DNA of 64,000 bases from Verrucomicrobia bacterium UBA3841 (lineage in GTDB: Bacteria; Verrucomicrobiota; Kiritimatiellia; RFP12; UBA1067): positions 1,315 through 65,314 of the forward strand of contig DGHT01000045.1 in the NCBI GenBank assembly GCA_002392765.1. Direction: 5' to 3'. The notes beneath the pieces are model-generated. The model ran no database searches. It worked only from the letters and a program-made list of their open reading frames with translations, and was not told the DNA's origin. A program made the translations under genes and the position numbers. Below, one piece after another: positions 17,556-38,816 of the stretch (the first letter of the stretch is position 1; each line of letters opens with the position of its first letter).

Positions 17556-18167
17556 GTGCTGAAGTCGCTTGCACGCAATGTCTCGTCCATTGCCACCCAG
17601 CAGACAATCATTGACGACATGTGCGCCAACGACTGTACGGCGTCGGACAAAACGGTGGCAGACTACCTAAATGCACTCAGGAAGATATTTGTTGTTGAAG
17701 ACACGCCGGCGTGGACGCCCGCGCTACGGTCGAAGACGGCCATACGATCAGCTGCGAAGCGCCAGTTCTCGGATCCATCAATTCCAGCAGCCGTCCTGGG
17801 GGCGAATCCCGACGGCCTTATGCGAGATATCGTGACACTGGGATTCCTGTTCGAGTCGATGTGTTGCCGTGATCTCCGAGTTTACGCGCAGGCAATGGAC
17901 GGACAGGTTTCGCATTTCCGCGATCGGCATGGACTGGAAATTGACCTCGTGGTGTCATTGCCGGACGGAAGATGGGGCGGCGTGGAGGTGAAGCTCGGCA
18001 GTGGGCGGATAGACGAGGCTGCGCAGAATCTTCTCAAGGTCGCCGGACGAGTGGATGAGATGCGCACGGGCAAGCCTTCGTTTCTGATGGTTCTGACCGG
18101 GGCGAAATTCGCCTTCCGACGCCCTGATGGCGTCATTGTCTGTCCCTTGGGCTGCCTGAAACCTTGA
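17556..18167 (+). pseudogene. N-terminally truncated AAA/DUF4143 ATPase (C-terminal 203 aa only)
   Basis: The ORF lacks any Walker A region. It begins inside the DUF4143-like part and ends in the restriction-endonuclease-like tail (ENLGLEIDLVV..WGGVEVKLGSGRID pattern: GLEIDLVVSLPDGRWGGVEVKLGSGRIDEAA). Confidence 0.55.
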
Positions 18168-18190
18168 CCTTTCGCAGATCGACGGCGTCC

Positions 18191-18402
18191 TTTCGGTCGT
18201 GCAGGTCTGCTACGAGCTGACGGACGACAACAGGGAGAGAGAATTCGACGGGCTTGCCTCCGCGGCAAAAAGGTTTGGCCTCAAATCCGGAATCGTCGTC
18301 ACTTGCAACCAATCCGACGAAGCGATCCACGACGGCTGCGAGAACTCCGTCATCCCAGCCGCCGACTACCTGTCAATGTAATACGCCGCCCCGTGCCGCA
18401 CC
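18191..18402 (+). pseudogene. duplicated 3' end of the 15087..16295 ATPase gene
   Basis: 18191-18402 is near-identical to 16105-16320. It encodes ...VQVCYELTDDNREREFDGLASAAKRFGLKSGIVVTCNQSDEAIHDGCENSVIPAADYLSM together with the same downstream flank. Confidence 0.65.
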
Positions 18403-18481
18403 GGTAGGGCTGGCGTTCCACCGCCAGCCGCCCCACCCGCCGACTCAAGGAGGTGGAGCGTCCCGCCCCACCCGCCGCACC
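18403..18481 (+). repeat. REP-like modular repeat
   Basis: Full H1+H2 unit: GGTAGGGCTGGCGTTCCACCGCCAGCCGCCCCACCCGCCGACTCAAGGAGGTGGAGCGTCCCGCCCCACCCGCCGCACC. Confidence 0.8.
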
Positions 18482-18534
18482 ATGGGGAAAAAGGGATAGA
18501 CGTAGCCATGGCGCCTGCCGTACTCACTGCCGCG

Positions 18535-18654
18535 TCAGAACTCGCGAGTCGACGGGAACATCGCCCCATTTCGTTCTGCCGCAAGATACGGGCAGCCGCC
18601 CATTGGCATGCACAATATCAGGCAGCCAATTATGATCACGATTCTCTTTTTCAC
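18535..18654 (-). pseudogene. truncated paralog of the lipoprotein gene 20425..21090 (signal peptide only)
   Basis: A GTG-start reading gives MKKRIVIIIGCLILCMPMGGCPYLAAERNGAMFPSTREF then a stop. The DNA at 18600-18720 aligns with 21040-21140, including the upstream region. Confidence 0.45.
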
Positions 18655-18818
18655 AGCACAGCCTCCCTATCCAATTCACCAATGGCAAGAACGCGATGCT
18701 CGCGAGGTTTGCCGCTGTGCATAGATTTTCCAACTGCCGGTTATTAGATTAAAGCCAACAGCGGCACCATCAATCCGAACCTATGAAGCGATATCAGATC
18801 TGCCACGATATGTCGCCT

Positions 18819-18906
18819 CTTGCGATTTCCTTCGACGCCTACTTGCGATTTCCTCTGATTCCTACTTGCGATTTCCCCTGATTCCTACTTGCGATTTCCT
18901 CCTATG
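18819..18906 (+). repeat. four tandem 23-bp repeats (CTTGCGATTTCCNCTGATTCCTA)
   Basis: The units start at 18819, 18842, 18865 and 18888. The array ends about 40 nt before the ATPase start codon at 18946. Confidence 0.75.
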
Positions 18907-18945
18907 TTATGCTATAATATTATCAATAAAAATGGAGATAGTACG

Positions 18946-20163
18946 ATGATATCCAGATGGCAAGAAAATAATCTAATACATGGGCTCAAGGTGCGTCGCG
19001 GCATCCATCTTACAGGTGCTAGACAGGTAGGGAAAACCACACTGGCAGAAGCCATAAGCATAGATTCTGTCGTGCATCGCTCTCTGGACAAGTCATCACA
19101 AGTCAGGGCGGCAAAATCCGATCCAGAGCTGTTTGTGCGTAGGAAAGGGGCTGAAACCATTGTTATTGATGAAATACAAAAAGCGCCCGAGTTGCTTGAA
19201 GAGATAAAACTCAAAGTTGACCACGACAATTCGCCTGGCCAATATCTTCTTACCGGCAGCTCAAATCTTCGTTTCCTCAAATCTGTAAAGGATTCGCTTG
19301 CCGGACGGTTTGGCACAATCAGGTTGCGAACGCTAACCCTTGGTGAACTAAACGGCTCTGCTCCCGACTTTCTCGACCAGTTATTCAATGAAGACTTCAG
19401 GAGAGCTTCAAAGGGCTTTGACAAACCATCACTAATCCATGCAGCCTTCATGGGCGGCTATCCGGAGCCGCTTGAGTTTTCGCATAGAGACAAGAAAGAC
19501 TGGGTGAAGAACTACCTCAATGATATTCTGACGAAGGACATAAAGGACATAACGGAGCTTAGGAAGCTGGATTCCTTGAGTGCAGCCGTGCTTTGGCTGA
19601 TGGCCCACACGGCTCAGCTCTTTACAATCGAGGAGTTCGGCGCCAAAGCCGGACTCACGCGAGAAACATCCCAGACATACATAGCCGCGTTGACAGCGCT
19701 TTACCTCTTCGACAAGGTCCCAGCATGGGCGAAAAGCGATTATGACAAAATCGGGAAACGTCCAAAATACATCATCACAGACACCTCGCTCGCCTCAATC
19801 ATGCTGGGCTGGCACGAAGACAATGTGGTTTTCGACGAACACACAAACGGGAAACTTGCGGAGTCCTGGGCCTATCATGAGATAGCCGCCCAGGCTGATA
19901 TCACAGGCGACTACAGCATAACACATTACAGAGACAGTGACAAGCGCGAAATTGATTTTGTCGTTGAGCGCGACGACGGACATTGCGCCGGGATTGAGGT
20001 GAAATGCGGTTCCTCCGTCGGGGATGAAGATTTCAAGCATCTTAAATGGTTTCGTGCAAAGTTCAATATGGACCGATTCACAGGAATTGTCCTTTACACG
20101 GGAAACGACGTGCTGAGTTTCGGCAATCACATGTACGCCGTCCCCTTTGCGAACTTGACCTGA
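18946..20163 (+). CDS. AAA+ ATPase with DUF4143-like C-terminal domain
   Basis: Start taken at MISRWQENNL, preceded by GGAGA. Walker A is GARQVGKTTLAE and Walker B is VIDEIQK. The C-terminus is REIDFVVERDDGHCAGIEVKCGSS. Confidence 0.8.
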   Translation: MISRWQENNLIHGLKVRRGIHLTGARQVGKTTLAEAISIDSVVHRSLDKSSQVRAAKSDPELFVRRKGAETIVIDEIQKAPELLEEIKLKVDHDNSPGQYLLTGSSNLRFLKSVKDSLAGRFGTIRLRTLTLGELNGSAPDFLDQLFNEDFRRASKGFDKPSLIHAAFMGGYPEPLEFSHRDKKDWVKNYLNDILTKDIKDITELRKLDSLSAAVLWLMAHTAQLFTIEEFGAKAGLTRETSQTYIAALTALYLFDKVPAWAKSDYDKIGKRPKYIITDTSLASIMLGWHEDNVVFDEHTNGKLAESWAYHEIAAQADITGDYSITHYRDSDKREIDFVVERDDGHCAGIEVKCGSSVGDEDFKHLKWFRAKFNMDRFTGIVLYTGNDVLSFGNHMYAVPFANLT

Positions 20164-23689: not shown

Positions 23690-23962
23690 TTATTTTCCCA
23701 CATAAACTTTCGGAGGAAATAACCCCAGATACACTTCTCCTTTTCTGGGATGCCAAGTCGTGCGCGAATACTCCCCACTTCCTCCGCATTTGCGGCAAGT
23801 CTTTCCATGGACTTTGCCAGAACCATTGCAGCGGAAACATTCGCCGCTTACCTCCTTGTACCTACAACCGAATAAGTTTTTACCACGCTTCACACGTGTA
23901 TCACGCTTATTACCTGCGAAAGCCGATAGGATCGCGCACCCAACCAGAAGCTCTACGATCAT
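23690..23962 (-). CDS. small membrane-anchored protein with DnaJ-CR-type zinc finger
   Basis: Start taken at MIVELLVGCAILSAFAG, preceded by AAGGAGGA. The motif is CFRCNGSGKVHGKTCRKCGGSG (two CxxCxGxG units). Confidence 0.5.
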   Translation of the reverse strand: MIVELLVGCAILSAFAGNKRDTRVKRGKNLFGCRYKEVSGECFRCNGSGKVHGKTCRKCGGSGEYSRTTWHPRKGEVYLGLFPPKVYVGK

Positions 23963-23978
23963 CTCATCCTCCTTACTT

Positions 23979-24506
23979 TTAACCATTTTTCTGATACACA
24001 CCCATGCCGCCACATTTGCGACACGTTTCCCCCGTTTTATGGAACACTCCTGTCCCATTACAGCGGAAACATATGCCGCTGTATGACCTTGAATAGCCAG
24101 GGAGTATCACACCCCTGCGTCCGCGCCACGAGCCAACAGATTCCCCATCTTCCCCATAATGCTCAAGCTTGTCACAATTCCCGAACAATCCGCAATTCAT
24201 AGTCTTTACAGACTTCTTGACCCGCCCGTGTTCAAACTCCAACTTCTCAACATCGTGCCCCCAGGCATCTTTCTTGATGCTGCCTTTCCCGACTCTTCTT
24301 CCATCCCGATAGACCTTGACATCCGTCCGATCGCCAAAGAAGCCTTGCCCATGCTTATACTCCTTCGTTGTCCCTGTGTCGTAATTGTGGACCACCGTCT
24401 TCTTGTTGCCCCAGAAGTCCCTAGTCCTAGTAATCGTCGTTCCAGACTGCGTCAGATAGTTGAACATCCTTCCGAGCAGTCCTGTCTCGCGTCTTCCATG
24501 TCCCAT
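23979..24506 (-). CDS. protein with C-terminal DnaJ-CR-type zinc finger (paralogous finger to 23690..23962)
   Basis: Start taken at MGHGRRETGLL. The upstream part of the track ORF would run through the AT-rich promoter region. The C-terminus is CFRCNGTGVFHKTGETCRKCGGMG. Confidence 0.5.
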   Translation of the reverse strand: MGHGRRETGLLGRMFNYLTQSGTTITRTRDFWGNKKTVVHNYDTGTTKEYKHGQGFFGDRTDVKVYRDGRRVGKGSIKKDAWGHDVEKLEFEHGRVKKSVKTMNCGLFGNCDKLEHYGEDGESVGSWRGRRGVILPGYSRSYSGICFRCNGTGVFHKTGETCRKCGGMGVYQKNG

Positions 24507-24643
24507 GGCACACACCTTTCTATTTGATCTACCCGATGGCACCCACTCGAGCGCCTCACTATATGTCTGAAATCCACAAACAGCCCTCCTTACCCCATTT
24601 TGACAGCATAATCTATTTATTTTAATATGTATACCTATTGGTA

Positions 24644-24672
24644 TTGACATTTCATATTTAAAATGATACAAT
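24644..24672 (+). promoter_or_regulatory. near-consensus sigma-70 promoter for the RtcR-like gene
   Basis: TTGACA (24644-24649), a 17-nt spacer, then TACAAT (24667-24672). The ATG follows 38 nt downstream. Confidence 0.55.
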
Positions 24673-24709: not shown

Positions 24710-26647
24710 ATGGACAGCAAAGGCAGAAAAGTTGTTGTATTCTCTTTTTTCGACGAAACAGAGGACTATCGCGGCATAATCAATGCCGCACTTAGAAAAG
24801 ATTGGGAGAATGAGGTTGACAAGTGGGCAGAGAATAGCTATTCAGGAGAAAGACCCTCAAGAAATAAATATAAGAAAAACAGCACCAAAAAGTTTTCCGA
24901 AACACATAATCCAGAAGAAATTGACAAAACGTACTGGCGGCCATCCACCGCCTTGGCACTCTCATTACGGGAAAGACAAAAAATTACCATAGACGAGTAT
25001 CACCTATTCTATCAACCGAAATTAAAAGATCACGAAAGCGAGCAACTCAATGGTACACACTATATTAAGGATGCAATTGAACGTTTAGTGCCAGGCATTA
25101 AAGTTAATCTTGAGAAAATTGACATAGGCAACGGTCACAATCTCAAGATCGTGTACGAAAACCTCTTTACATACTTTCTGAATTACTTTAATCCATCACA
25201 AGCAGACGCTAACACCACGAACATTCGATATCTAGTCCACGTCACATCTGGTTCACAGGCCGTCCGCATGTGCCTCTTTCTTCTCGCCCAGAACAGATGG
25301 ATACCAGCTGAATGCATTCAACTCTGGACAACAAAAAAGAACGATCCAGTCGGGGAATGCTCAATAACAGCGCTTGGGGCTTCGACCAAAGGGGAAACCA
25401 AGCTCTTGCAGAACGACCCCGAATCCCTTGGCGAAATTATCGAAACAAGAGATAAAGACTACAGCAACACACTTGCATATATTAAGCGGATTGCAGACAA
25501 AACTAATGAACCAATCTTGCTATTGGGCGACACTGGAGTCGGAAAATCCCAAATTGCGAAGTTAATATTCGACCATCGTAAAAAATCCCTTGCAAGCAAA
25601 GATGACTATATATCAAACAAAAACAATGAATGGATTACAAAGGATGGAGCCTTTAAATGGGTTAACTGTAGCGGCCTCGACGACGCTCTTGTAAATGACA
25701 CTCTGTTTGGGCATGTGAAGGGTGGGTACACAGGCGCGACAGAGGACAAAGCTGGGCTAGTAGAACTGGCCTGTGGAGGTGTGTTGTTTCTGGATGAAAT
25801 AGGCAATCTCCCTATCGAAACACAAGGGAAATTGCTTACTCTCATTGACGAGCATAAATTCAACCCCATTGGTGATCGCGGAGCGCCAAAAGAATCTAAA
25901 TTCCTCCTCATCTGCGCTACCAATGAATGGATACCAGATCTAATTGAGAAAGGTAAGTTTCGCCGTGATCTTTTTGAACGTATTCGTACTTGGACATTCC
26001 GCATTCCAAATCTTAAAGAGCGCCCGGACGACATTGACCTTAACATTGACAACCTGTTAAAGATCTTCAGCAGAGACAATGGCACCAATATTCAGTTCAG
26101 CAACGAACTGTCACGCCAAAATTTCCTATCCGCCATAAAAGGCATGACGTTCAATGGTAATTTCAGAGAACTAAGACGGATCATATGGCGTATGGCAACC
26201 ATTGCCACACTTGAAAAACACGTCATTGACGACAGCATAATTCAAGACGAAATCGAAAGACTCAAAAGCGAGCAGGAATGGAATAACAAGTCCTCGTCCA
26301 AGCAAGTGCAGTCACCACCCAAGATAGCATCTATCAACGAAACCTTTGCCGACAAAGTCTTGAATGCCATCCACCAAAAATATGACATCAAATCTAATAT
26401 CAACAACATTGAACTTCATCAACTGCGGCACGTTATTGAGGTTTGTTTACGAAGCAAGACAGGTGCGGCCGCTGCGAGAGAACTGTTTAATGTAAGTTTA
26501 AAAGATAAAGGCAATGGTTTAGGCGCTAAAAGCAATGCCTCCGATTATATGAGCCGTTATTTTAGGCGAAAAGCCATTAGCCAGCTAGGCATCGACTTTG
26601 ACACGATTAAGTCTATCGCAAGGGAGCTCCGCCAAAAAACTACTTGA
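24710..26647 (+). CDS. RtcR-like regulator: CARF-like N-terminal domain, sigma-54-interaction AAA+ domain and C-terminal HTH
   Basis: 645 aa that is collinear with my recollection of E. coli RtcR. The matching blocks are YLVHVTSGSQAVRMCLFLLAQNRWIPAECIQLW, Walker A GDTGVGKS, LFGHVKGGYTGA (a GAFTGA-loop variant, 25721-25738), GGVLFLDEIG, GKFRRDLFERIRTWTFRIPNLKERPDDI and NGNFRELRRIIWRMA. Confidence 0.85.
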   Translation: MDSKGRKVVVFSFFDETEDYRGIINAALRKDWENEVDKWAENSYSGERPSRNKYKKNSTKKFSETHNPEEIDKTYWRPSTALALSLRERQKITIDEYHLFYQPKLKDHESEQLNGTHYIKDAIERLVPGIKVNLEKIDIGNGHNLKIVYENLFTYFLNYFNPSQADANTTNIRYLVHVTSGSQAVRMCLFLLAQNRWIPAECIQLWTTKKNDPVGECSITALGASTKGETKLLQNDPESLGEIIETRDKDYSNTLAYIKRIADKTNEPILLLGDTGVGKSQIAKLIFDHRKKSLASKDDYISNKNNEWITKDGAFKWVNCSGLDDALVNDTLFGHVKGGYTGATEDKAGLVELACGGVLFLDEIGNLPIETQGKLLTLIDEHKFNPIGDRGAPKESKFLLICATNEWIPDLIEKGKFRRDLFERIRTWTFRIPNLKERPDDIDLNIDNLLKIFSRDNGTNIQFSNELSRQNFLSAIKGMTFNGNFRELRRIIWRMATIATLEKHVIDDSIIQDEIERLKSEQEWNNKSSSKQVQSPPKIASINETFADKVLNAIHQKYDIKSNINNIELHQLRHVIEVCLRSKTGAAAARELFNVSLKDKGNGLGAKSNASDYMSRYFRRKAISQLGIDFDTIKSIARELRQKTT

Positions 26648-27311
26648 AGAGTCGCCGCAAAGGAATGCTTCCATTACTCCAAGCAAGACGGGCTGCACCC
26701 AAGTACTTCGAAAATGACGGCAATAGAATTTTCTGATCTTTTTTCGCATTAAGAACCTCTAGAAACTCCGTCTGCGTAATCGGCTTATGCTTTGAAAGAA
26801 ACTCGACCGGGGAGGCTAACTGCTTCATAGCACCAGGCTCCATAAGCCATTCAGCAGTTGCACAATAGGCTTCACGGCGCTGAACAAGCTTCAGTAAAGT
26901 GTTTCTGCCAAGTACACTACGTCCAACATATGTCTCTCCCCCCATCTCTGGCACGTCTATTTCAATCCTACCATCTTCATTTCGAAATACGCGAAGCACA
27001 TATGCGGCATCCGTCAAAAAAGGCCCCGTCTCGAAAACCTCGGACAAAACCGCATCACTTTCGACCGTTAATGCATCTTCATCCGAGAAATCCCACTCCG
27101 CGTCAAACACTTCCTCGGCAAGCTCATCGTCTATTGCCAAATCTTCATATCCAACGGAAATATCCTGGACTATGTGCCCTCGCTGCTCCAGTTCCTGTAA
27201 GTTGCGCTGCACTTCCAGAGGCCCCCCAGAACAAACTATATCGGCCAGAACGTGTAATGCCTGAGTTTGCTTCGTCTGCTGTTCCTGCCCAATACCAAAT
27301 CCGAGGCCCAT
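26640..27311 (-). CDS. truncated sigma-54 (RpoN)-like factor, about 223 aa
   Basis: It has a Gln/Leu-rich Region-I-like N-terminus (GIGQEQQTKQTQALHVLADI...LEVQRNLQELEQ) and an acidic Region-II-like stretch. This is followed by AYVLRVFRNEDGRIEIDV, RNTLLKLVQRREAYCATAEWLMEPGAMK and KPITQTEFLEVLN...LPSFSKYLGAARLAWSNGSIPLRRLF, which resemble the sigma-54 DNA-binding region up to the HTH (..STISRVT..KY..TPRGIFELKYFF). No RpoN box is present. The start at 27311 has an AAGGAGG 9 nt upstream, inside the RNAP gene's end. Confidence 0.6.
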   Translation of the reverse strand: MGLGFGIGQEQQTKQTQALHVLADIVCSGGPLEVQRNLQELEQRGHIVQDISVGYEDLAIDDELAEEVFDAEWDFSDEDALTVESDAVLSEVFETGPFLTDAAYVLRVFRNEDGRIEIDVPEMGGETYVGRSVLGRNTLLKLVQRREAYCATAEWLMEPGAMKQLASPVEFLSKHKPITQTEFLEVLNAKKDQKILLPSFSKYLGAARLAWSNGSIPLRRLFK

Positions 27312-27312
27312 C

Positions 27313-30300
27313 TTAAGCATCCTCCTTTCCGCAAGTCTTTTCGCGATGCCCCCAGCGATTGAACATCACCTTGGCAAATGGTGAATCAAATGACAACACA
27401 CCGTCGCTTATCGCAAGTTCAAATATCTGCCGTTTCTGCCTCTGAAAAAGAATATCCGTAAACGTTTTGTCCGCCGATTTATCAGCTGCCGCACTATTTT
27501 TCGTTGCCTCTCGTTTCTTCTTCAGTGCCTCCCAGAGGATTTCCAGATACTTATCGTCAATTTCCGCATATTCGGTCTCTTCATTATCCCCATTTTTTCT
27601 AATTGCATTTATAAAACCGACCTTATCGTCATCCCTAACATAATCTCTATGTTCAGGACTCCCCTTCTCCCCAACTTCCCCGGTTAAGAACAACGCACGG
27701 GATCGCGCGATGTCGATTCCCTTCCCACCTGTATGGAACCCCTGCATCGCGACCTGAAGTCCCCTTTCGCCTATTGCCTGCGCCGCGATAAGACCTTCTT
27801 GCCCTTTCGGCCAGAGCATAAACACAAGGCGACGCGTAAGATCGCCGGCCTTACCTGCACCAAGCTTCTTATTGCACATAGTGGTGCGAGCATTTAACGA
27901 CGACCAGAACATTTCGTCCCACGACATCCCATGCACGAGCGAACAATCGAACTTCTTGGCCTTATCCGGGATTAGGTCTTTTGAGTACCCCAAATGATCC
28001 ATGTCCACATGCAACTCGCCTCGCGAACCTATTAATTGGCGTATTTGGCTTTGACCGTTTGCACCCGACCTGACCATGTCCAAAACTGACTTCTCTCCGG
28101 CAGACAGATCGGACGCTCCACGCACTTTGTCGAGAATGCCTTGCTCCTCCATCTTCCCAACTCGCGAACTAAGGTCTAATAAATCATAGAACCCAAAGGA
28201 CACGCCTTGGCGTGTACATGCATGATAAGCAAGACGGGCGAGAGCAGCAATCGCCTTTGCCGACTTCTCACCATTCTCCTCGGACAACTCATCAATAAGT
28301 TTCTTGCCGAACTCGCCAGGCTTATCAAACTTCTCCTCAAATAGCTTGCGAATCCCGTCATCCAGATTAATCTCGTCAATCTCTTTCTTATACTTCACCT
28401 GGTTCTCATAGACAATCTGCAGCCCAGTCACAAAATCGCGGTCATACTGCGCCGAAGCTTTTCCCGTACCTATCATACGAAGATTATTGCGCGGTAGCAT
28501 TACAACAGCCTCTTTCTGGGCCTCGTCAGATACAGGATAGTGTCCAACCATCTCGTCACCATCGAAGTCGGCGGCAAAACCCTTGCAGCAGAGCGGCGAT
28601 ATCTGCAGCACTTCGCCGTCTTCGGGCTTCAATGGCTCAGGGTAAAACGCCTGAAAGCCATGACGATGAAGTGTTGGCTGACGATTGAGCAAAATCAACT
28701 GCGGATGTTCATTCAAATAGTCGCGAAGCAACTTATACTTCTCGTCATCTGTAAGCGAAGAAGCGGCCTTATTCCACCACCATCCAACGCGCAGTACAAT
28801 TTCGGAGTCATTCGATCCAGACACTACCGTTTCTGAGTCTGCAGGATTGCTTGTTTCAGCCCCCATAAACGAAGCTAATACTCTGTCTCCCATCAATTCC
28901 CACAGGACATCTGTCGGTACGCGGACCTTATCCCATTCCAATTCGGGATTTGGCGTAATGACCAATCGGAATGAACGATCAACGCGACGCCCCAGTCCTT
29001 CGCGACGCAACAATCCATCCTTTTTGTCAAGACGATTAGCGATTTCCACGAACAGCTCTTTGACCGCTGTCTTAACACCGGCCAAGCACTTCTCTTTATC
29101 TTTAACTCCACATGCCCTAACAAGTTTGCGGTAGAGGTTATTAATCTCGGCGCAGCTTGCCGCATTGTCGGATATTTCCGGGATCGGCCGTCGATAGCGA
29201 ATCGGGAGAACTGGTATAATTGTTAGTTTGGGCAGTTCCTGTCCCAACGACCTCAAATCTTTTGCAGATATGCCAAAAGCATCGTATGGATAATCAACTG
29301 GCTCTGGAAGTTTAACATATCCCCACTTATCATCGCAAAGTTCCGGCTTTCTCCAATCACCAAATATCACTTCGTCAAATATACTGCCCGGATTGGCTTT
29401 ATAATAACACCCGTATGGAGGCGTCGCTTTCAGAGAGATTGTCGCGTGGTGAGGACATGTGACAGAGAAGTCTCCCAGCGCCGGACCCTCTTTCTCTCCA
29501 CATAACGAACTAAGAAGATCTTTAGCGGATCTGTTAAGCGGTTTGCCAGCCACCTTCCCCTTGCTAAACCTCCCGTAACAGGTCATCGTTTCCATACCAA
29601 CCGGCCATTTAGGAGGTTGCATTCCAGGCTTAGGAACAATCTCAGCCTTTATCCAGTCTTTCTGCGGGTCATAGTCTTTTAGCGTCACAACAAGAGTACA
29701 TTTGGGAGCGCCCTCAACCGGAGTTAAATCCCACTCAAAGACCGCAGGTCCCATGCCTTGACCTGGCATCGGATGAATAGGCTTTGTGCAATCATACCCC
29801 CAGCTGCGCAAAACACTCTTAACTCTGAGCGCATTGGTGTTTTTGTTGTCACCACTACCTTTTGGCAGCTTCTCATTGCCAAACGGCATCCCACATCCTT
29901 TGGGACAGACAAACGAAGCTGTTGGCTCCTTTGAAACACCACCGGCAGACAACACACGCTGCGCACCATTGTCTTCAATCCATTCCCTGATCGTCTCTTC
30001 TGACATTAACGAGAATCGAACCTTGTCTGCCCCTGCCTGCTCCATATCAATCCCAAGCGCCCAAAGCCAATCTCGCGCAACTCGCGGGAATCCAGAAAAC
30101 AGCTCCTTTACAGGCGGGGCTCCTTCAGCTTTCCATTCGCTCGCCCATTCAACGTCGGACTTCGCGCCCAGCATCTCTTCAAGAATATGCGGCACGCCGT
30201 ATGCAGCAAGCGCCCACACCTCCATCTCCCCCAGTCTCTGCCCGCCGCCAATTCGACGTCCATGCGCAGCCTGCCGAGTGGTAGACGAATATTTTGCATC

Positions 30301-32460
30301 CGAACCACCACATCGTGCCTGCGCTTTAAACTCTGGCACATGATGAAGCCGGACAAAGTACTCAAACCCAACGAGTACAGGGCTCTCCGTCTTCGACCCA
30401 TCTGGCAACACCAATTGGATGCATCCCTTCCGGTCTAGCCCACTTGCCTCAAGGGCGTGGCGAATTGCATCATGGTCAAGATTCGCGTTGTCGAAGCAAC
30501 CAAGTTCAGGCGACACTCCGCCACTTTTCAAGAAGTTAGCCCCATTCCACCCCGCATGAAGCAGCCAACCAAGATGCGTTTCCAGAAGCTGGCCAGGGTT
30601 CATCCTAGATAGCACACCATGTGGGTTAAGCAGAACATCTATGGCTTTGCCACGCAGATTCGCTGGCAACCGAGGATCATCGGGGAGGTGCGGCATTTCT
30701 TCTTCATCAAGAACCCTCGCGACCACCCCCTTGTTACCATGCCGCCCCATCAACTTGTCACCGAGACCAAGCGGCACCTCTTTCTCTAGTTCAAATGACA
30801 AACGCTGAGACAACTCTTGCAATGCTTCAGAATCTTCACACCCTTCATTAGGCGGAAAGAATGGTCCTTTGGAAATCCGGGCAGGATTCGGGTCCTCATA
30901 TCGCAAGACAAGCTTTTTCTTGTCACCATTGGCAAAAGATATGACAACATCTCCTTGCTTTAGAGGTGTGCAATTGTCAATCCTTTTCCAGAACGGGACC
31001 CATTCCGGGCTAATTTCGTGCGAAAACCACTTGCGCTCCGCAATCGCCATTTTTTCTGCGACTTTCCGACTGACAACAATCGCATCATCCACATTCCATC
31101 CATTCCACGACATATAGGCCACAAGAAGATCGCACCCGAGCGCAAGATCACCCTTCTCATCGATGGTGTTTGGACAGATGCCTATGTCTGTAAGCCGACA
31201 CATCTTTTCGACAAGTTCGCGCTCCGCGCCAGTCTTTACAAGCGGTGCGCAGCGTCCTGAGACGAGTGTTGCCTGCCGAAGGTTCTTTGCACCCAGCATA
31301 TTCCTGGCGTCGTCATTATGTTGCGCAAAGGGAATCATAGAAACTCCCCAGCCCACGCTCCCCATAGCTCCACCATGCTGCTCCATTGCCCCCTCAGCCA
31401 TGACAATCTCGCCATTTGCAGTGACACGAGCATGCCGAGCCAGTTGCAATGAGATGCCAATCATTTCGGATTCAGGTGTCTCAATCGGACAAATCCGGCC
31501 ACGGAACGACGGATGATTCTGCCGAAAATCCAATGGGAAACAAAGCACATTGGTTCGCTTGACATGGTAGCGCTTTATACCGGTGATGCTTGCCATCAGC
31601 TCCAGTGCGTTGTTCGGTTGGACAGGGGTGACAAAACCACCTCGCTTCAGCCCATTCAACGGCACCAAGCAATCGGGAACATATTTGGCCACTTCTTCTG
31701 AAAAGAAATCATCCCCATCCTTGTGTTTCGCGAACAATTTACAAAGTCGAAAAGCAAGCCAGCGCGGGAATGAAACAACAACACGATGCGCAAGATCATC
31801 CTGATCAACAGGCTGCATCAATTCACCTGCATGTTCGCGCACAGCATCAATCACATCCTTTGCCTTGCCGTTCAAAGCCTCCTTTAACCATTCGGGGATG
31901 AGCTCTTTGCTATCCTGTGCCCCACCCCACAATGGACCGAACGGCATGTCATCCATCAACTTCTGCAGACGCTTACAAACGTTATCTGACGGTTCATCCC
32001 ACAGCAAAGACCCTTTTGGTCCGTCCGGAAGTTTCACACTAAACTGCACACACGAAGCATCTGGGAATCCTATTCTCAATTCAACCTCTTTTTCAACCTC
32101 TCGCCTCGTTTTTCCGGCAGGATACACGAACCTAATGCCGGGCTTTTCGGCAAGCCATGAATTCCATACAAGTGACTGCGCATGTTTATCAGAAGCGCCT
32201 ATAAAGACTCCGTCTATGGGAAAAGGTAGCTTCTCAATTCTAAGTACATTTTTGGGATTGCAATTCGACCTGATCTCGATTTCACCGCACAACGTTCGGT
32301 TGTTGTTCCAACACTTCTCTGCCAGCCTTTCAGAAGGAAGTCGCAAACAGGCAGAGACATCCTGCCTCAATATCCGAGAAAGAACCTCCGAAACAGCATC
32401 GTTCCATTCTTTCGCGGTTTCAGGATCAAACATTAGCCAATTAGTTTTTCTGTCTTCCAT
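27313..32460 (-). CDS. single-polypeptide fusion of multisubunit RNA polymerase beta-like and beta'-like moieties (minimal, 1715 aa)
   Basis: Beta motifs are FRGRICPIETPESEMIG (aa 319-335), IPFAQHNDDARNMLGAKNLRQA, VAYMSWNGWNVDDAIVVS, GDKLMGRHGNKGVV (GRHGNKG at 30727-30747), IDVLLNPHGVLSRMNPGQLLETHLG and QRLGEMEVWALAAYG. Beta' motifs are GRRVDRSFRLVITPNP, LLNRQPTLHRHGFQAF, PLCCKGFAADFDGDEM (AADFDGD at 28555-28575), SQIRQLIGSRG, the bridge-helix-like GDLTRRLV and AAQAIGERGLQVAMQGFHTGG. Confidence 0.9.
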   Translation of the reverse strand: MEDRKTNWLMFDPETAKEWNDAVSEVLSRILRQDVSACLRLPSERLAEKCWNNNRTLCGEIEIRSNCNPKNVLRIEKLPFPIDGVFIGASDKHAQSLVWNSWLAEKPGIRFVYPAGKTRREVEKEVELRIGFPDASCVQFSVKLPDGPKGSLLWDEPSDNVCKRLQKLMDDMPFGPLWGGAQDSKELIPEWLKEALNGKAKDVIDAVREHAGELMQPVDQDDLAHRVVVSFPRWLAFRLCKLFAKHKDGDDFFSEEVAKYVPDCLVPLNGLKRGGFVTPVQPNNALELMASITGIKRYHVKRTNVLCFPLDFRQNHPSFRGRICPIETPESEMIGISLQLARHARVTANGEIVMAEGAMEQHGGAMGSVGWGVSMIPFAQHNDDARNMLGAKNLRQATLVSGRCAPLVKTGAERELVEKMCRLTDIGICPNTIDEKGDLALGCDLLVAYMSWNGWNVDDAIVVSRKVAEKMAIAERKWFSHEISPEWVPFWKRIDNCTPLKQGDVVISFANGDKKKLVLRYEDPNPARISKGPFFPPNEGCEDSEALQELSQRLSFELEKEVPLGLGDKLMGRHGNKGVVARVLDEEEMPHLPDDPRLPANLRGKAIDVLLNPHGVLSRMNPGQLLETHLGWLLHAGWNGANFLKSGGVSPELGCFDNANLDHDAIRHALEASGLDRKGCIQLVLPDGSKTESPVLVGFEYFVRLHHVPEFKAQARCGGSDAKYSSTTRQAAHGRRIGGGQRLGEMEVWALAAYGVPHILEEMLGAKSDVEWASEWKAEGAPPVKELFSGFPRVARDWLWALGIDMEQAGADKVRFSLMSEETIREWIEDNGAQRVLSAGGVSKEPTASFVCPKGCGMPFGNEKLPKGSGDNKNTNALRVKSVLRSWGYDCTKPIHPMPGQGMGPAVFEWDLTPVEGAPKCTLVVTLKDYDPQKDWIKAEIVPKPGMQPPKWPVGMETMTCYGRFSKGKVAGKPLNRSAKDLLSSLCGEKEGPALGDFSVTCPHHATISLKATPPYGCYYKANPGSIFDEVIFGDWRKPELCDDKWGYVKLPEPVDYPYDAFGISAKDLRSLGQELPKLTIIPVLPIRYRRPIPEISDNAASCAEINNLYRKLVRACGVKDKEKCLAGVKTAVKELFVEIANRLDKKDGLLRREGLGRRVDRSFRLVITPNPELEWDKVRVPTDVLWELMGDRVLASFMGAETSNPADSETVVSGSNDSEIVLRVGWWWNKAASSLTDDEKYKLLRDYLNEHPQLILLNRQPTLHRHGFQAFYPEPLKPEDGEVLQISPLCCKGFAADFDGDEMVGHYPVSDEAQKEAVVMLPRNNLRMIGTGKASAQYDRDFVTGLQIVYENQVKYKKEIDEINLDDGIRKLFEEKFDKPGEFGKKLIDELSEENGEKSAKAIAALARLAYHACTRQGVSFGFYDLLDLSSRVGKMEEQGILDKVRGASDLSAGEKSVLDMVRSGANGQSQIRQLIGSRGELHVDMDHLGYSKDLIPDKAKKFDCSLVHGMSWDEMFWSSLNARTTMCNKKLGAGKAGDLTRRLVFMLWPKGQEGLIAAQAIGERGLQVAMQGFHTGGKGIDIARSRALFLTGEVGEKGSPEHRDYVRDDDKVGFINAIRKNGDNEETEYAEIDDKYLEILWEALKKKREATKNSAAADKSADKTFTDILFQRQKRQIFELAISDGVLSFDSPFAKVMFNRWGHREKTCGKEDA

Positions 32461-32473: not shown

Positions 32474-34468
32474 TCATTCAAGACTCAACATCTTCTTAGC
32501 AATTTCTATCTGCCCTTCTGCAAATACAGAAAACACATCATACGTTTGAACGGTATTTACATTTGCACACACATGTCCAACACACTGGGAAGCAACGTCT
32601 TCCCCGCCAAGTAGACCATTTCTCGAGAAAGTCATATGTGCATTTCTCATCAACGGGTTTACTCTTGCTCTTAGAGAATCCGTCCATGGTGGACCATTCT
32701 GTTCCACTTCATCAGGATTAAATTCTATCGCCGCAGCCCCATCCTTTGGGCCAGAATAAATCAGCCAACTCTGATTCGGTAGTTTATCATTAAACCACAC
32801 GCCATCACGATATTTATCTCGCTTCTCTACGTCATTTGTGTCAAGATACGGGCAAGATTTTGCATCCAAAACAATCCAATACTGACTTTCTGGAGAATTA
32901 TCACTATAAAACACAATTGCATAATCAGGAGTCAACAGATAGCGAGACGTAAAACCTCTTATGTTAGAATTCTGGTCTTGATATGCTCTAATGCCGCCGT
33001 ATAATTCCACCCTCAATGGACAATCTCTCTGTTTTAGTTTTGCACAGATTGGGCCATTGAATGTTGGTCCAAGATGAATATTCTTGATGCATTGCACGAC
33101 TTGCCTTGCATAGTTAGTCCCAAGATCTTCAAGTCCCTCATTCATAAATGCTTGGACAAGACGCTTAAACACCCATGCCTCATATATAAACGAGTAGTTC
33201 TTTTGCCAAGTTGAACATTCGCCATCATCCAAATCGCGCACATGCTTGGGTAAACGAAAACAACCATTCAAACGGCCCTTAAAGTCTCGCAATTTCAAGA
33301 AGTCCATCATTAATTTATGTGTACGGTTATATGCTTCAGTATTAGGAATGTCAACAGTTGCGAGGTAATCAATGGAACCGGAAACAACGCCTATGCACTG
33401 CATCCATGGACATCCTTCCGTGAAGAAAGGTTGACACTGCCCAACAATCTCCCTCACTTTATCAATCAAAGACCGTTTGAATTCAATTTCTTTCTTTATA
33501 TCCTTAAGAAGGAATTTATCGATATCCGGAACCTTGCTCAACCAATCTTCATCTGCCGATATACTATCTTTTATTTTGTGTATCAAATCAACCACGCAGT
33601 TCTTAAAATACAACAGGAATCCTTTTATTGCCCTATGTATCGGCACATCGTATGACATTGACAACACTGGAGCATAAACCTTTCCATGAGATATTCCCAA
33701 CGACAATCTGCGATTCATATCACGTCTTGTCTTCGATGATATCTTACGTAGTTTCTCCTGGGGAGTCCTCTGATAAGATCTCACAACACCCCCCGCACAT
33801 CTACTTGCAATGTCTAAAAGATATGGCTTCAATGAACTTATCAAACCTTTAAACTCGAGAATTTGCCTCTCTACATCCCTAAGAATGCTCGCCGTCTCGG
33901 AAGAAAAACATTCCTCTTTTATGTTTGTCCTTGAAAGCCCCTCAAATGTAGAAAGAACCGCAGAAGGATTCACACCAATCATCTCATCAACCATACGATC
34001 CAACAACTGCTTCTTGTCAGGATTCGGCTCTACCTTAATGTCAAACTCTGCAATAGTAACCCATTCAAAGTTTTCTGTCATGTTAGCGCGACGACGTAGC
34101 CGCAGCATTGACGGCCCAGAAGCACCACGCAACATCTGCATTCTAAAAACATGAACTTTGTTACCTTTATTATCCTTTCCCCATGTAAAGAACCGCCCTC
34201 CCGAGTCTGTCTGTGGTTCATAATCTGGTCGATACGCAAGTTGTAATTGATATAAAGAATCCAAGTCTTCATTGGGGGCAATCTTTTCAAGTCTCGCCTC
34301 CAAAAACAGAAGGTCACTAACAGCACCTTTGACGCCCCACGCACCTTCGCTAAAGTGAATAAGATTTCGAATGCTGCCCACCACCCCATCGCCAAGAGGA
34401 AGCGATGGTGTTTCAACGAAAGACTCCTTGGAATCTTTATCCTTATAAAAGAAAATCTTAAGATCCAT
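32474..34468 (-). CDS. McrC/DUF2357-like protein with C-terminal PD-(D/E)xK nuclease motif
   Basis: 664 aa. FIYEAWVFKRLVQ is followed by LLTPDYAIVF ... WIVLDAKS (D515, D535-x-K537; 32858-32929). It is immediately downstream (7 nt) of the McrB-like gene. Confidence 0.65.
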   Translation of the reverse strand: MDLKIFFYKDKDSKESFVETPSLPLGDGVVGSIRNLIHFSEGAWGVKGAVSDLLFLEARLEKIAPNEDLDSLYQLQLAYRPDYEPQTDSGGRFFTWGKDNKGNKVHVFRMQMLRGASGPSMLRLRRRANMTENFEWVTIAEFDIKVEPNPDKKQLLDRMVDEMIGVNPSAVLSTFEGLSRTNIKEECFSSETASILRDVERQILEFKGLISSLKPYLLDIASRCAGGVVRSYQRTPQEKLRKISSKTRRDMNRRLSLGISHGKVYAPVLSMSYDVPIHRAIKGFLLYFKNCVVDLIHKIKDSISADEDWLSKVPDIDKFLLKDIKKEIEFKRSLIDKVREIVGQCQPFFTEGCPWMQCIGVVSGSIDYLATVDIPNTEAYNRTHKLMMDFLKLRDFKGRLNGCFRLPKHVRDLDDGECSTWQKNYSFIYEAWVFKRLVQAFMNEGLEDLGTNYARQVVQCIKNIHLGPTFNGPICAKLKQRDCPLRVELYGGIRAYQDQNSNIRGFTSRYLLTPDYAIVFYSDNSPESQYWIVLDAKSCPYLDTNDVEKRDKYRDGVWFNDKLPNQSWLIYSGPKDGAAAIEFNPDEVEQNGPPWTDSLRARVNPLMRNAHMTFSRNGLLGGEDVASQCVGHVCANVNTVQTYDVFSVFAEGQIEIAKKMLSLE

Positions 34469-34475: not shown

Positions 34476-36479
34476 TTATACTTGCATGATTCTTTTAGTG
34501 TAGTCATCTATTCGCCTTTTCAAGAGCTCCGCAGAAAGTGGTAACTTGAGAACATCCGAGTTTACATTCTGATCGCCCTTGCCACTCACCTCAATTTCAA
34601 ATCCTTTGTTAACGTTATCGTAAAGTGTATTAATAGCAGTTATCGTCCCTGGTGTGGGTCTGCATGCAAAAAACACCCTTTGCGCGAGAAATTCATCCAG
34701 CGCGACTTTCTGTCGCTCGGCTTCAGTAAGGAATGAATTATTTCCTTCATATGGAGGCCTGTTCCGAATATATGTAAACATATCTGAGACAATACGCCCG
34801 CTCATATCGAACCCTGCGTCTGACATAATGCTTTCATTCCCATCCTTAGGTCCTAGAAGAGACAAAATGGCGTTAACAATTATATTGTCAATGTCGCGAG
34901 ACGACTCACACCAACGCTTAAAGGTCCCATATGTGATTGGTTCTCGGCCGACGAAAGGCTTTATTTCAGGGGCATTTCCATCTGCAAGATCCGTCACAAG
35001 CTTCTTCGTAGTTTCAAAAGAACTTGCTAGTTCAATGGTGTTGCAGCGACTTAAAAAACGCGGACTCAATGGGCGTGTTGTTTCGTCCGAATTACATGTA
35101 CCGATCACGCGGAAGTTTTGCTCCACAAACAAGTCCATGCCATTATCCTTACACCCAGGAATCACCCCCATTCCTCGACTCATGATTTGGATAAAATCAG
35201 AGAAGTAATGCTCAACACATGCAAGATTCATTTCTTCAAAACAGACAATGCCCATCGGCAAGTTCTCACCTTCAGATATATTCCTTATGAATTCTGCCAA
35301 GTGACTCGGCGCATGCCGAAAACCACCGTCTGTCTCATAGCCAAGTAGATCCGCAGGTTCCATCCATGCCGGGTTAACAAAAATCTGCCGCCACGACCGC
35401 TCGGCCGGCGGCCGCTCGGCGTCATTCTTTGCGGGCGAACCAGCAACAGCCCTCATATACAATTCTGCCAATGAAGATTTACCTGTGCCGGGGTTACCCG
35501 CTAACAGCGTACACATCGAACACTTGACGCTTGTGTGTAGTCTTACTAGATCGGCCGTGCTATACTTGAAGCCGCACCTTTTGACATATTGCTCAAAACT
35601 TTTCAAAAAAGATATCTCTGTCTCATCCCATTTATCGTCATCCTTGTTGCCTGCACTTTCATGTGACGAATTCTTTCCTGTCAAGCCAGCCGTATCAGAA
35701 GTGGCATCACCAGTCGCTTGTGGCCGGCCAGATATTGCTCTTTCTACGCTATCGCCAACATTGGCACCTATCATGCCGCCTCCACTCAACGGCTCGTCAT
35801 CTTCTGCCTCTGCCCCACGTTCACAACCATCATCGACGGGCAACTTTCGCCAAATGTTTTCATCCGCAAGAAGATCGTCGGTAGTCACATTTTTGAACGG
35901 ATTCACTAACACAAATTGGTCACCATTAAACTTGATCTCCTTACGACGATCGTCATTGCTGAAGAAATAAAACGTCTGCTTCAGGGTCTTCTCCTCATGA
36001 TCCGGCAACCGATCTTCACGAACACCTTCTCCAACTTGAACACGGCCCGTCTCACGATCATAAGTAAATCCTGAATAAAACTTGTTTTCATCTGAAATGA
36101 TAACGTCTCGCGTCCATATTTTATACTTTGGACATAGCCCTTTTGCTGAATTATTTCGGATGAAATCATCCAACGAGGTAGTCTTTGACTCCTCAAATTC
36201 TTCCCATTTCCTCATCTGCACAGGGCGTTTTGCGTTTGCAAATAGGAGTGTCTTTCCATTTTTTACTGTGCACACCGCAAACTCATCACAGACGCAATAT
36301 GGCTTTTCCCCTGAATCAACATGTATTTCACGATCGCCAAGAGGATTGCCAGCTGCATCTACTGCGCTTTTCAATATATGCTTTCGAACTGCGCCTGTCG
36401 CATCACGATCGCGATCATCGTATATCCCATAAATAAAGTCGTCCTTCTTGACATTCCTATTGTAGTGTTTTGGTGCCAT
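34476..36479 (-). CDS. McrB-like AAA+ (AAA_5) NTPase with large unknown N-terminal domain
   Basis: Start taken at MAPKHYNRNV, preceded by AAGGAGAG. Walker A is LLAGNPGTGKS (35475-35498). Walker B plus the McrB-type segment is IVCFEEMNLACVEHYFSDFIQIM, followed by VIGTCNSDETTRPLSPRFLSRCNTIEL. Confidence 0.75.
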   Translation of the reverse strand: MAPKHYNRNVKKDDFIYGIYDDRDRDATGAVRKHILKSAVDAAGNPLGDREIHVDSGEKPYCVCDEFAVCTVKNGKTLLFANAKRPVQMRKWEEFEESKTTSLDDFIRNNSAKGLCPKYKIWTRDVIISDENKFYSGFTYDRETGRVQVGEGVREDRLPDHEEKTLKQTFYFFSNDDRRKEIKFNGDQFVLVNPFKNVTTDDLLADENIWRKLPVDDGCERGAEAEDDEPLSGGGMIGANVGDSVERAISGRPQATGDATSDTAGLTGKNSSHESAGNKDDDKWDETEISFLKSFEQYVKRCGFKYSTADLVRLHTSVKCSMCTLLAGNPGTGKSSLAELYMRAVAGSPAKNDAERPPAERSWRQIFVNPAWMEPADLLGYETDGGFRHAPSHLAEFIRNISEGENLPMGIVCFEEMNLACVEHYFSDFIQIMSRGMGVIPGCKDNGMDLFVEQNFRVIGTCNSDETTRPLSPRFLSRCNTIELASSFETTKKLVTDLADGNAPEIKPFVGREPITYGTFKRWCESSRDIDNIIVNAILSLLGPKDGNESIMSDAGFDMSGRIVSDMFTYIRNRPPYEGNNSFLTEAERQKVALDEFLAQRVFFACRPTPGTITAINTLYDNVNKGFEIEVSGKGDQNVNSDVLKLPLSAELLKRRIDDYTKRIMQV

Positions 36480-36495
36480 CGTACTCTCCTTATTT

Positions 36496-36672
36496 TTAAA
36501 TTCCAACCTCTTGCTGAGCTTGCAGTCTCCGATCCAAGTCCAATTGCATATAATCCACCGCTACAGAACGAAGCCCCATAAAATCATATCCAAGATCATC
36601 AAGAAACATTTTCGCTACAAAATAATTGGCATCAACTAATGCGTTGAAATACCTGTACTTATTCTCTTCCAT
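36496..36672 (-). CDS. 58-aa acidic helical protein, first gene of the island operon (not in ORF track)
   Basis: My own translation is MEENKYRYFNALVDANYFVAKMFLDDLGYDFMGLRSVAVDYMQLDLDRRLQAQQEVGI. A strong SD (GAGGAGGAGGCTCTACAATG) precedes it. Its composition is AT-rich like the island. Confidence 0.4.
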   Translation of the reverse strand: MEENKYRYFNALVDANYFVAKMFLDDLGYDFMGLRSVAVDYMQLDLDRRLQAQQEVGI

Positions 36673-38309: not shown

Positions 38310-38483
38310 AAAACGCCTGCATGCTTTAGTTGCTGTCAGTTCCTTTATTACCGTAATATGTCGGATGATGGGATAGGGACTCGATTTCCTGCACCGCAAT
38401 TCGGCTGTAGCCCGCCGCTCTCGCACTTGACAAATGTAGCCCACAAATGCTACAATACGCTCATCATTTCTTGGAGGCAATCA

Positions 38484-38816
38484 ATGCAAGCTACGCGAAC
38501 CGACACAGTCAGAGCAAGAATATCTCCCGAGTTGAAGAACTCGGTTGAAGGGATATTCTCGTCGCTCGGCATGAATTCATCACAGGCGATAGTCCTGTTT
38601 TTCAAACAAGTCGAATTGCATAACGGGCTTCCGTTCGACGTGACTTTGCCGCCAAAGAAAATCCCCAACATGGCCACGATGTCCGACGAAGAGGTTGATG
38701 CCGCTCTTCAGGCGGGCATCGATGAAATTGACGCGGGCAAGTGCGTTCCGCTGAACAGGGCTTATGCCGGATTTCGCAGGAGACACGCAAAATGGGCGAC
38801 TATGGCATCGAAATAA
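38484..38816 (+). CDS. RelB/DinJ-family antitoxin
   Basis: The start MQATRTDTVRARISPELKNSVEGIFSSLGMNSSQAIVLFFKQV is preceded by GGAGG. This is a ribbon-helix-helix DinJ-like N-terminus. Confidence 0.75.
   Translation: MQATRTDTVRARISPELKNSVEGIFSSLGMNSSQAIVLFFKQVELHNGLPFDVTLPPKKIPNMATMSDEEVDAALQAGIDEIDAGKCVPLNRAYAGFRRRHAKWATMASK

Follow-up and report, generated by a model that had tools for sequence, protein, structure and literature searches.

A compact single-chain RNA polymerase encoded with a sigma-54-like factor and an AAA+ activator in a Kiritimatiellia genome: a conserved and apparently undescribed gene module

To our knowledge, bacteria are thought to use one core RNA polymerase, phage and prophage enzymes apart. 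In the genome assembly of Verrucomicrobia bacterium UBA3841, a member of the Kiritimatiellia, an open reading frame (ORF) of 1715 amino acids (aa) joins reduced versions of that enzyme's beta and beta' subunits in one chain. The ORF lies in a stretch of 64,000 nucleotides (contig DGHT01000045.1, positions 1,315 to 65,314), the whole of which was analysed and is called the window below. The locus raises the question of whether such an ORF encodes a genuine second polymerase and, if so, what would direct it to a promoter. Our results showed that the gene for this mini-polymerase forms a conserved module with a gene for a small sigma-54-like protein, termed the mini-factor, and a gene for an AAA+ ATPase of the sigma-54 activator type; the anatomy, the homologies and the linkage of the three genes recur from locus to locus. 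The module appears to be undescribed so far. Neither it nor the polymerase was found described in the literature searched, which was weighted away from subscription journals, or in the family libraries, and no mention of such a polymerase or module was found in the papers on CoCoNuT (PMC11090510) and on NTP-dependent conflict systems (PMC7159879). A sequence-only reading of the locus had treated the polymerase as a lone paralogue, a view that is replaced by the module with its sigma-54-like factor, its AAA+ activator and a candidate promoter motif.

The ORF and its parts were delimited as follows.

27313..32460, minus strand: RNA polymerase of the two-barrel type, with reduced beta and beta' fused in a chain of 1715 aa that begins at an ATG (ORF translation, Pfam, hhalign, homologues)
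31636..32460, minus strand: family-specific N-terminal region, aa 1-275, standing where the beta lobes would be; F86 and W99 are invariant in the family
30085..31635, minus strand: beta-homologous core, aa 276-792, with the fork loop FRGRICPIETPE, GWNVDDA, the GRHGNKG barrel and GEMEVWALAAYG (hhalign, invariant columns)
29239..30084, minus strand: aa 793-1074, the junction of the two cores with its Cys-containing insertion; folds confidently in an AlphaFold2 (AF2) model of aa 771-1715
27718..29238, minus strand: beta'-homologous core, aa 1075-1581, with lid, clamp helices, GRRVDRS, NRQPTLHR, AADFDGD (28555-28575), bridge helix and trigger loop (hhalign, Foldseek)

Several comparisons identified the ORF as a polymerase of bacterial type. 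On the beta side, Pfam matches to Rpb2_3 (aa 311-346), Rpb2_6 (554-736, E 3e-41) and Rpb2_7 (739-769) are followed by the beta' matches Rpb1_2 (1157-1321, E 1.5e-21) and, weakly, Rpb1_5 (1556-1600), and among PDB sequences the best matches belong to bacterial beta (E 1e-48) and bacterial beta' (E 2e-27). With a 37-sequence family profile, hhalign mapped aa 276-792 onto E. coli beta 511-1341 (E 2e-55) and aa 1075-1581 onto E. coli beta' 235-941 (E 1e-53), both at a probability of 100%. The N-terminal 275 aa, the junction (aa 793-1074), the flap remnant and the 135-aa C-terminal tail showed no significant similarity to the bacterial beta and beta' profiles in hhalign; the flap region has shrunk to about 90 aa. 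The AF2 model of aa 771-1715 (pLDDT 84, pTM 0.74) matched bacterial beta' chains in Foldseek (E ~1e-20), which supports the beta' half at the level of structure.

These results agree in most respects with the sequence-only reading, which had placed beta blocks before beta' blocks in a single ORF; the translation, the order of the Pfam matches and the profile alignment to RpoB and RpoC all have them so. Every motif that it quoted occurs in the translation, GRHGNKG (30727-30747) and AADFDGD at exactly the positions given, and its slips in motif coordinates were small (FRGRICPIETPE occupies 31471-31506, not 31471-31500, and GDLTRRLV lies at 27823-27846). Its estimate that the protein has a little over 60% of the combined size of E. 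coli beta and beta' also stands (1715/(1342+1407) = 62%). Its proposal that the beta' part ends soon after the first trigger helix does not: the AF2 model has a bridge helix of 39 residues (1514-1552), a first trigger helix (1554-1577), a short second helix (1584-1593) and then about 120 more residues.

Compared with bacterial RpoB and RpoC, the mini-polymerase keeps the same order of blocks (fork loop, both double-psi barrels, bridge helix, trigger loop) and bacterial-type motifs such as GRHGNKG and GEMEVWAL, and beta precedes beta' as in the natural rpoB-rpoC fusions of Helicobacter and Wolbachia. Unlike RpoB and RpoC, it has 62% of their length, no recognisable beta lobes, a minimal flap and no SI insertions; it has instead a family-specific N-terminus, junction and tail, a Gly or Ala in place of an active-site Asn, a sigma-like factor of its own and no nearby alpha or omega gene. 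No alpha- or omega-like gene was present in any neighbourhood listing of the module loci, as had been noted for the window. The NCBIfam scores were far under the rpoB, rpoC and fusion cut-offs, with 249 bits against 896 for the RpoB model PRK00405, 235 against 801 for TIGR02013, and 243 against 5372 and 240 against 4632 for the models of full-length fusions of ~2800-2900 aa (NF007172/NF011417), which sets the protein apart from such fusions, as had been claimed.

Could the fusion nevertheless be an error of sequencing or assembly? Beta and beta' domains were found together on one chain in about 78 clusters (1500-1900 aa, 28-85% identity) drawn from many samples, all of them named 'hypothetical' or generically; beyond this family there is a step in E-value, to the range of housekeeping enzymes. 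Because about 78 clusters share the fused architecture, a frameshift or assembly artefact, a risk that had been foreseen for this ORF, is ruled out. Invariant across the family are the three catalytic Asp residues, GRHGNKG, NRQP(S/T)LH(R/K), R1260, and M1572 and H1576 of the trigger loop. The unusual size would be the one argument for a mis-assembled rpoB-rpoC junction or a decaying, functionless paralogue, and such an explanation, which we consider negligible, is refuted by the family-wide conservation, with its independent fused clusters and invariant catalytic residues and with confident AF2 models for both the beta' half of the polymerase and the mini-factor. As judged from these sequence features, and as part of the reading of the module given below, we lean towards the view that the ORF encodes a catalytically competent, single-chain, reduced bacterial-type RNA polymerase.

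If the enzyme is real, what accompanies it? In all of about 16 distinct loci, a gene for a small protein (215-340 aa) lies directly after the polymerase gene, within a few bases, and the stop and start codons of the two genes often overlap in the loci inspected. A sigma-54-activator-type AAA+ gene adjoins them in about 13 of the 16. Its product has three forms: an RtcR-like CARF-AAA+-helix-turn-helix (HTH) protein, encoded tail-to-tail with the operon, in the window, in its closest relative (locus L001) and in L005 and L262; a co-directional protein of 400-490 aa in L003, L167, L169, L181, L184, L185, L263 and L264; and a protein of 1208 aa in L170. In several proteins of the second form, the chain ends just past the AAA+ lid, so that a DNA-binding domain is missing. 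The same three-gene layout is found in a divergent lineage (L189 1041-7215, L194, L197 5611-12262), where the polymerase has 1300-1450 aa, the middle protein of about 302 aa has a basic N-terminus, an acidic linker and a segment resembling an HTH ('VSKNQLSWYL...DG'), and the AAA+ protein of 460 aa has the loop GSWTGS or GSFTGS. A metagenome scan with an alignment of the beta' segment returned mostly archaeal and phage polymerases, together with five new module loci.

In the window, the two partners of the polymerase are the following.

26640..27320, minus strand: sigma-54-like mini-factor of 226 aa, whose start overlaps the polymerase stop (hhalign, AF2, Foldseek)
24710..26647, plus strand: RtcR-like CARF-AAA+(sigma-54 activator)-HTH ATPase of 645 aa with pore loop GGYTGA, convergent with the operon, the stop codons overlapping

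The mini-factor had no match in Pfam, NCBIfam, PHROGs or PADLOC, and an 8-sequence profile of it gave only insignificant homeodomain matches among PDB sequences. An exhaustive HMMER search of 1.8 billion representatives delimited a family of 152 representative clusters in two size classes; sigma-54 itself was not among the results. The mini-factor of the window has N-terminal helices, an acidic linker, a small beta domain and a long helix with an HTH that ends in SFSKYL..L.W..GS.PL..LF. With a 76-sequence profile, hhalign aligned the last 90 residues to sigma-54 aa 324-407, that is, its long helix (ELH) and HTH (probability 85%, E 6.9e-6, score 49.6), and a separate profile of the long forms aligned to the same segment (E 2.4e-4). 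As controls for the score of 49.6, 120 column shuffles scored at most 19.2 and the reversed alignment 14.2. In the AF2 model of the mini-factor (pLDDT 85), two N-terminal helices and a disordered acidic linker come before a small sheet, which is followed by a helix of 25 residues and an HTH; in Foldseek, the top 14 among 350,542 PDB chains were all sigma-54 in holoenzyme complexes (probability up to 0.98). On the basis of these profile and model comparisons, we conclude that the mini-factor is related to sigma-54, and a sigma-54-like protein at this position had been hinted at in the sequence-only reading.

The mini-factor shares with sigma-54 (RpoN) the ELH-HTH segment, which in sigma-54 contacts the -12 element, and an acidic linker like region II; unlike sigma-54, it is half the size or less and lacks the core-binding domain and the RpoN box. 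With no RpoN box, recognition of a -24 GG is not expected. The C-terminal extension of the long-form mini-factors does not align to the RpoN box either. At the other end, the two confidently modelled helices that precede the acidic linker have no sequence alignment to sigma-54 region I; the flexible N-terminus would be the counterpart of region I on which the activator acts. Recent structures have an activator threading sigma-54 region I through its pore (PMC11839083, PMC12054792).

The AAA+ protein of the window resembles RtcR, PspF and NtrC in its Sigma54_activat domain and aromatic pore loop, and has the full RtcR architecture. It matched Pfam Sigma54_activat (3.5e-41) and RtcR (1.2e-16) and PADLOC RtcR (2e-101), is 33% identical to E. 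coli RtcR over its full length, with GGYTGA against GAFTGA in the loop, and scored 345 bits against the NCBIfam RtcR model, under the cut-off of 650. In 11 of the 13 loci, the residue at the position that contacts sigma-54 is aromatic (Tyr in 8, Phe in 2, Trp in 1), and the loops are mostly GAYTxG, in contrast to the GAFTGA of bacterial enhancer-binding proteins.

If the mini-factor retains the part of sigma-54 that reads a -12 box, is there a corresponding DNA element? A candidate was found by eye in the DNA downstream of the activator genes, and in the window it precedes the small genes that diverge from the RtcR-like gene.

24568..24580, minus strand: candidate promoter element TTTGTGGATTTCA, 62 nucleotides (nt) upstream of the divergent small gene (family consensus GTTTGTGAATTGCWAT)
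23690..24506, minus strand: putative cargo, two paralogous small proteins with DnaJ-type CxxCxGxG zinc fingers (weak Pfam DnaJ_CXXCXGXG), divergent from the RtcR-like gene

The element, TTTGTGRRNYKCW with the consensus GTTTGTGAATTGCWAT, is asymmetric and intergenic, and lies 9-240 nt upstream of the next gene, in the same orientation. Written as TTTGTGRRNTGCW, the conserved motif ends in the sigma-54 -12-like TTGCW, a box that sigma-54 reads with the segment still present in the mini-factor. Ten instances were found in six independent lineages, in the window, L001, L003 (two), L167, L169, L181 (two), L184 and L185; as an element before adjacent cargo genes, the motif was counted in seven loci from six of the lineages examined. 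One of the L181 sites precedes the operon that holds the polymerase itself, and in both L003 and L181 the motif precedes the downstream genes, though these face opposite ways relative to the module; this comparison is one of orientation. The genes that follow the motif encode small zinc-finger proteins, small membrane proteins, an NYN nuclease and a SprT-like protein. The strict pattern occurred 19 times in 4.1 Mb of unrelated loci, or with a chance of about 1e-3 per 430-nt region, so finding it in six independent lineages far exceeds chance, even with the search by eye taken into account. From its sequence and placement, we regard the motif as a candidate promoter of the mini-polymerase. A CRP-type palindrome was considered as another reading of the TGTGA-containing motif and was rejected, the second half-site not being TCACA in any instance.

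Extended -10 promoters of the host's sigma-70 type precede the polymerase gene in L005, L168 and L183, and a near-consensus sigma-70 promoter with an extended -10 (TTGACA-17-TACAAT, TG present; 24644-24672, plus strand) lies just upstream of the RtcR-like gene of the window; no comparable sigma-70 promoter was found for the divergent small genes on the opposite strand. Host-type boxes before the polymerase or activator gene fit a machine expressed by the host and a cargo under control of its own.

Taken together, these features somewhat favour a reading of the module as a self-contained transcription switch of the sigma-54 type, able to do without the host polymerase, the promoter role of the motif, the interactions, the ATP dependence and the purpose being what we infer. 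The mini-polymerase would be the enzyme of a locally encoded three-part transcription module. The mini-factor would serve as a miniature sigma-54, with its long helix and HTH binding the compact element TTTGTGRRNTGCW, whose 3' half resembles a -12 box, and with its N-terminal helices keeping the polymerase-promoter complex closed. The adjacent AAA+ ATPase would be the switch, and in the window its RtcR-like CARF domain may sense damaged RNA ends or cyclic oligonucleotides. The ATPase would grip the N-terminus of the mini-factor through its GAYTG-type pore loop and spend ATP on opening the complex, and the mini-polymerase would transcribe the neighbouring cargo, in the window the small zinc-finger proteins, independently of the host polymerase. 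The purpose would be a tightly gated expression switch triggered by stress or defence. Such a system would differ from the sigma-54 system in having a single compact motif rather than a -24/-12 promoter, and a dedicated paralogue rather than the host core enzyme as its polymerase. A wider claim is put forward tentatively: certain bacteria, in this case probably Kiritimatiellia or others of the Planctomycetes-Verrucomicrobia-Chlamydiae (PVC) group, would possess a complete second sigma-54-type apparatus with its own compact promoter and a sensor-coupled AAA+ activator, acting without the host polymerase as a damage- or infection-triggered effector switch and maybe yielding an altered product.

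Several observations weigh against the self-contained switch. The similarity of the mini-factor to sigma-54 spans only about 90 residues, its Foldseek E-values are around 1e-2 with low TM-scores, and no Pfam sigma-54 model matched it even at E up to 10. Sigma54_CBD and Sigma54_DBD, the core-binding domain and the RpoN box, are absent, the protein ending just after the HTH, and we therefore call it sigma-54-like rather than a sigma-54. L168, L183 and L265 have the polymerase and the small protein with no adjacent AAA+ gene, and in L262 the loop of the activator is the canonical GAFTGA, with which it could serve host sigma-54. Besides having been found by eye, the motif is absent from L005 and L170 and was below threshold in 4 of the 4 test loci fetched later, with a near-match in L264 only. 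Finally, the loss of an Asn from the active site, described below, raises the possibility of a changed substrate or activity.

It is also conceivable, though we think it unlikely, that the locus is a case of ordinary RtcR regulation, in which the ATPase would activate the host sigma-54 polymerase at a host-type promoter and so induce the genes of the island, the small protein being an accessory or assembly subunit. The mini-polymerase would then be an induced effector that is promoter-independent, uses RNA templates or serves as a backup when the host polymerase is blocked. The activator of the window is indeed a full-length RtcR homologue with a DNA-binding HTH, and the GAFTGA loop of L262 would suit this explanation. 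RtcR homologues have been proposed to drive defence operons through host sigma-54 (PMC11090510), and other two-barrel polymerases such as QDE-1 use RNA templates (PMC9508822). However, the host-type promoter TGGCAC-N5-TTGC with up to two mismatches was matched 58 times in the window, against 57.6 expected, which is chance level, and sigma-70-type promoters stand before the polymerase gene in several loci. Many activators of the family have no DNA-binding domain at all and would thus hardly act as enhancer-binding proteins at a host promoter far away. Moreover, the mini-factor matches sigma-54 specifically, by profile and by fold.

Does the enzyme have the active site of an RNA polymerase? The earlier description of its catalytic elements as intact holds for the Asp triad, the GRHGNKG barrel, the bridge helix and the trigger loop; it fails for the conserved Asn of NADFDGD, which is gone. 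This residue, E. coli beta' N458, corresponds to an Ala in the window polymerase (Ala1296-Ala1297 of AADFDGD, 28570-28575), and it is replaced by Gly or Ala in 37 of 37 aligned family members and in all three divergent relatives. It was retained in each of the 71 bacterial and 75 phage sequences sampled and in about 67 other metagenomic, mostly archaeal-type, sequences. We take N458 to contact the ribose hydroxyls of the incoming NTP and beta' R425 to be the main sensor of the 2'-OH. An enzyme of changed chemistry, one that makes DNA, mixed polymers or short signalling or priming products, would account for a replacement so consistent within the family and its divergent relatives and for its absence from the other sequences sampled. 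We nevertheless regard this as improbable, as the Arg equivalent to R425 and the Met and His of the trigger loop are invariant in the family and the active centre otherwise conforms to the usual RNA polymerase pattern. In one subgroup (P0076-P0078), DADGD is found where other members have DFDGD.

Fused ORFs of 2240-2600 aa were also seen in metagenomes (L186 4331-12148, L188 5708-12433, L190 5285-12814), and no sigma-like neighbour was detected beside them. Three GADFDGDEM-type motifs among the other metagenome loci probably belong to these ORFs. If the motifs do sit in them, the change of Asn to Gly would be common to these ORFs and the mini-polymerase family.

Since phages are known to encode polymerases of their own, we compared the enzyme with these. 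YonO, of the Bacillus subtilis prophage SPbeta, is likewise a single chain homologous to the beta and beta' cores and encoded outside the housekeeping operon (PMC5467207). As described there, YonO is a prophage-encoded protein of about 100 kDa with only very distant homology to multisubunit polymerases, which sets it apart from the mini-polymerase, a protein about twice that size, recognisable by Pfam and accompanied by a sigma-54-like factor and an AAA+ protein. The subunits beta and beta' from uncultivated tailed phages (PMC7481178) are also reduced, to about 1000 and 910 aa on IMG/VR contigs, and are 25-33% identical to the mini-polymerase, with bit scores close to those of bacterial subunits; the beta half of the mini-polymerase scored somewhat better against bacterial beta, and its beta' half about equally against bacterial and phage beta'. 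Unlike the mini-polymerase, however, the phage enzymes are encoded by separate genes, beta' before beta, and keep NADFDGD. On contigs L088 (9263-15005) and L093 (9260-15023), for example, a beta'-like gene (~910 aa) is followed by a beta-like gene (~1000 aa), the reverse of bacterial operons, and family hidden Markov models (HMMs) detected no sigma-54-like or AAA+ neighbour at the phage polymerase loci. The module was not found on IMG/VR viral contigs among the best 80 matches. Some IMG/VR contigs carry single ORFs of ~1475-1500 aa that score about 290 bits with the fused-polymerase profile (L266 3891-8396, L268 3978-8405, L269 3945-8396, L272 3939-8405); by their sequence, these may be another class of single-chain two-barrel phage polymerase.

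The surroundings of the module bear on what it might be for. In the window, the island to which the earlier reading had assigned the polymerase is supported solely by its G+C content, which is 42-52% in the region of roughly 22-38 kb, whereas the flanks have about 60%. The following genes lie in or beside it, and a STAND-like ATPase also flanks it.

32474-34468, minus strand: McrC-like protein of 664 aa with a PD...(D/E)xK-like PDYAIV...LDAKS read from the translation
34476-36506, minus strand: McrB-like AAA_5 ATPase (Pfam AAA_5; PADLOC PDC-M26A), upstream of the polymerase in the same apparent operon
~36496-36672, minus strand: small ORF of ~58 aa preceding the McrB-like gene, the same trio being present in L001
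37344-38309: Fic/DOC protein with an HTH
38358-38816: RelB antitoxin-like gene
15087-20163 (plus strand) and 41473-42636 (minus strand): DUF4143/AAA_14 ATPase genes, two intact and one fragment, flanking the island

To judge by its sequence, the McrBC-like pair has the look of a type IV restriction-like pair appended to the module. It is absent from module loci other than L001 and, being common only to this closest relative, is probably an associated defence pair rather than part of the core. RtcR homologues have been reported beside McrBC-type defence operons, in an account that mentions no polymerase (PMC11090510). A homologue of the zinc-finger cargo occupies the same position in L001 (18037-18962) and is followed by a 149-aa membrane protein rich in Gly, Ala and Thr; the small zinc-finger proteins and this membrane protein are candidate effectors. 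In L169 (1-9700), the module lies just downstream of a type III-B (Cmr) CRISPR-Cas system with a fusion of reverse transcriptase to Cas1 (RT-Cas1), and the array reaches the start codon of the polymerase gene. Neighbours at other loci include PARG, NUDIX and helicase genes, RecBCD and a TCAD9 protein. Three distant loci (L167 4860-9947, L263 4155-9998, L264 12072-19198) share a recurrent set of three proteins (259 aa; 431 aa and response-regulator-like; ~870-900 aa and unannotated), joined by an inosine-uridine nucleoside hydrolase in L167 and L263 or by a TCAD9 protein in L264, which hints at a larger conserved system. The defence-type neighbours, together with the RtcR/McrBC precedent, suggest a switch triggered by stress or defence, and stress or defence is probably the biological link of the module.

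A mobile element might also need a transcription machine of its own, used like YonO for its late, transfer or maintenance genes rather than as a defence or stress switch of the host. The low-G+C island with its Fic/DOC and RelB genes is compatible with this, as are the type IV secretion system coupling protein, TraG-like and excisionase-like (HTH_17) genes near some of the module loci, and YonO offers a precedent (PMC5467207). However, no integrase, capsid or replication genes were found around the module in the loci inspected, and the best 80 IMG/VR matches placed it on no viral contig. The gene order flanking the island in the window is common to L001 and includes housekeeping-like genes, and the cargo differs between loci and is often defence-like. 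We therefore regard a mobile-element machine as a doubtful explanation.

What would the self-contained switch mean for the bacteria that carry it? If it is confirmed, a conserved second polymerase that is encoded on the chromosome and served by its own sigma-54-like factor and activator would add a new level to gene control. It would also be a natural minimal sigma-54 system (polymerase about 190 kDa, factor about 25 kDa), attractive for structures of ATP-driven promoter opening, and a possible part for synthetic biology, as a tightly gated orthogonal expression system. We know of no relatives of sigma-54, and the mini-factor family thus bears on the origin of sigma-54 and of its activators. 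If the module is linked to defence, immune loci can carry their own transcription machine and so escape the takeover of the host polymerase by phages.

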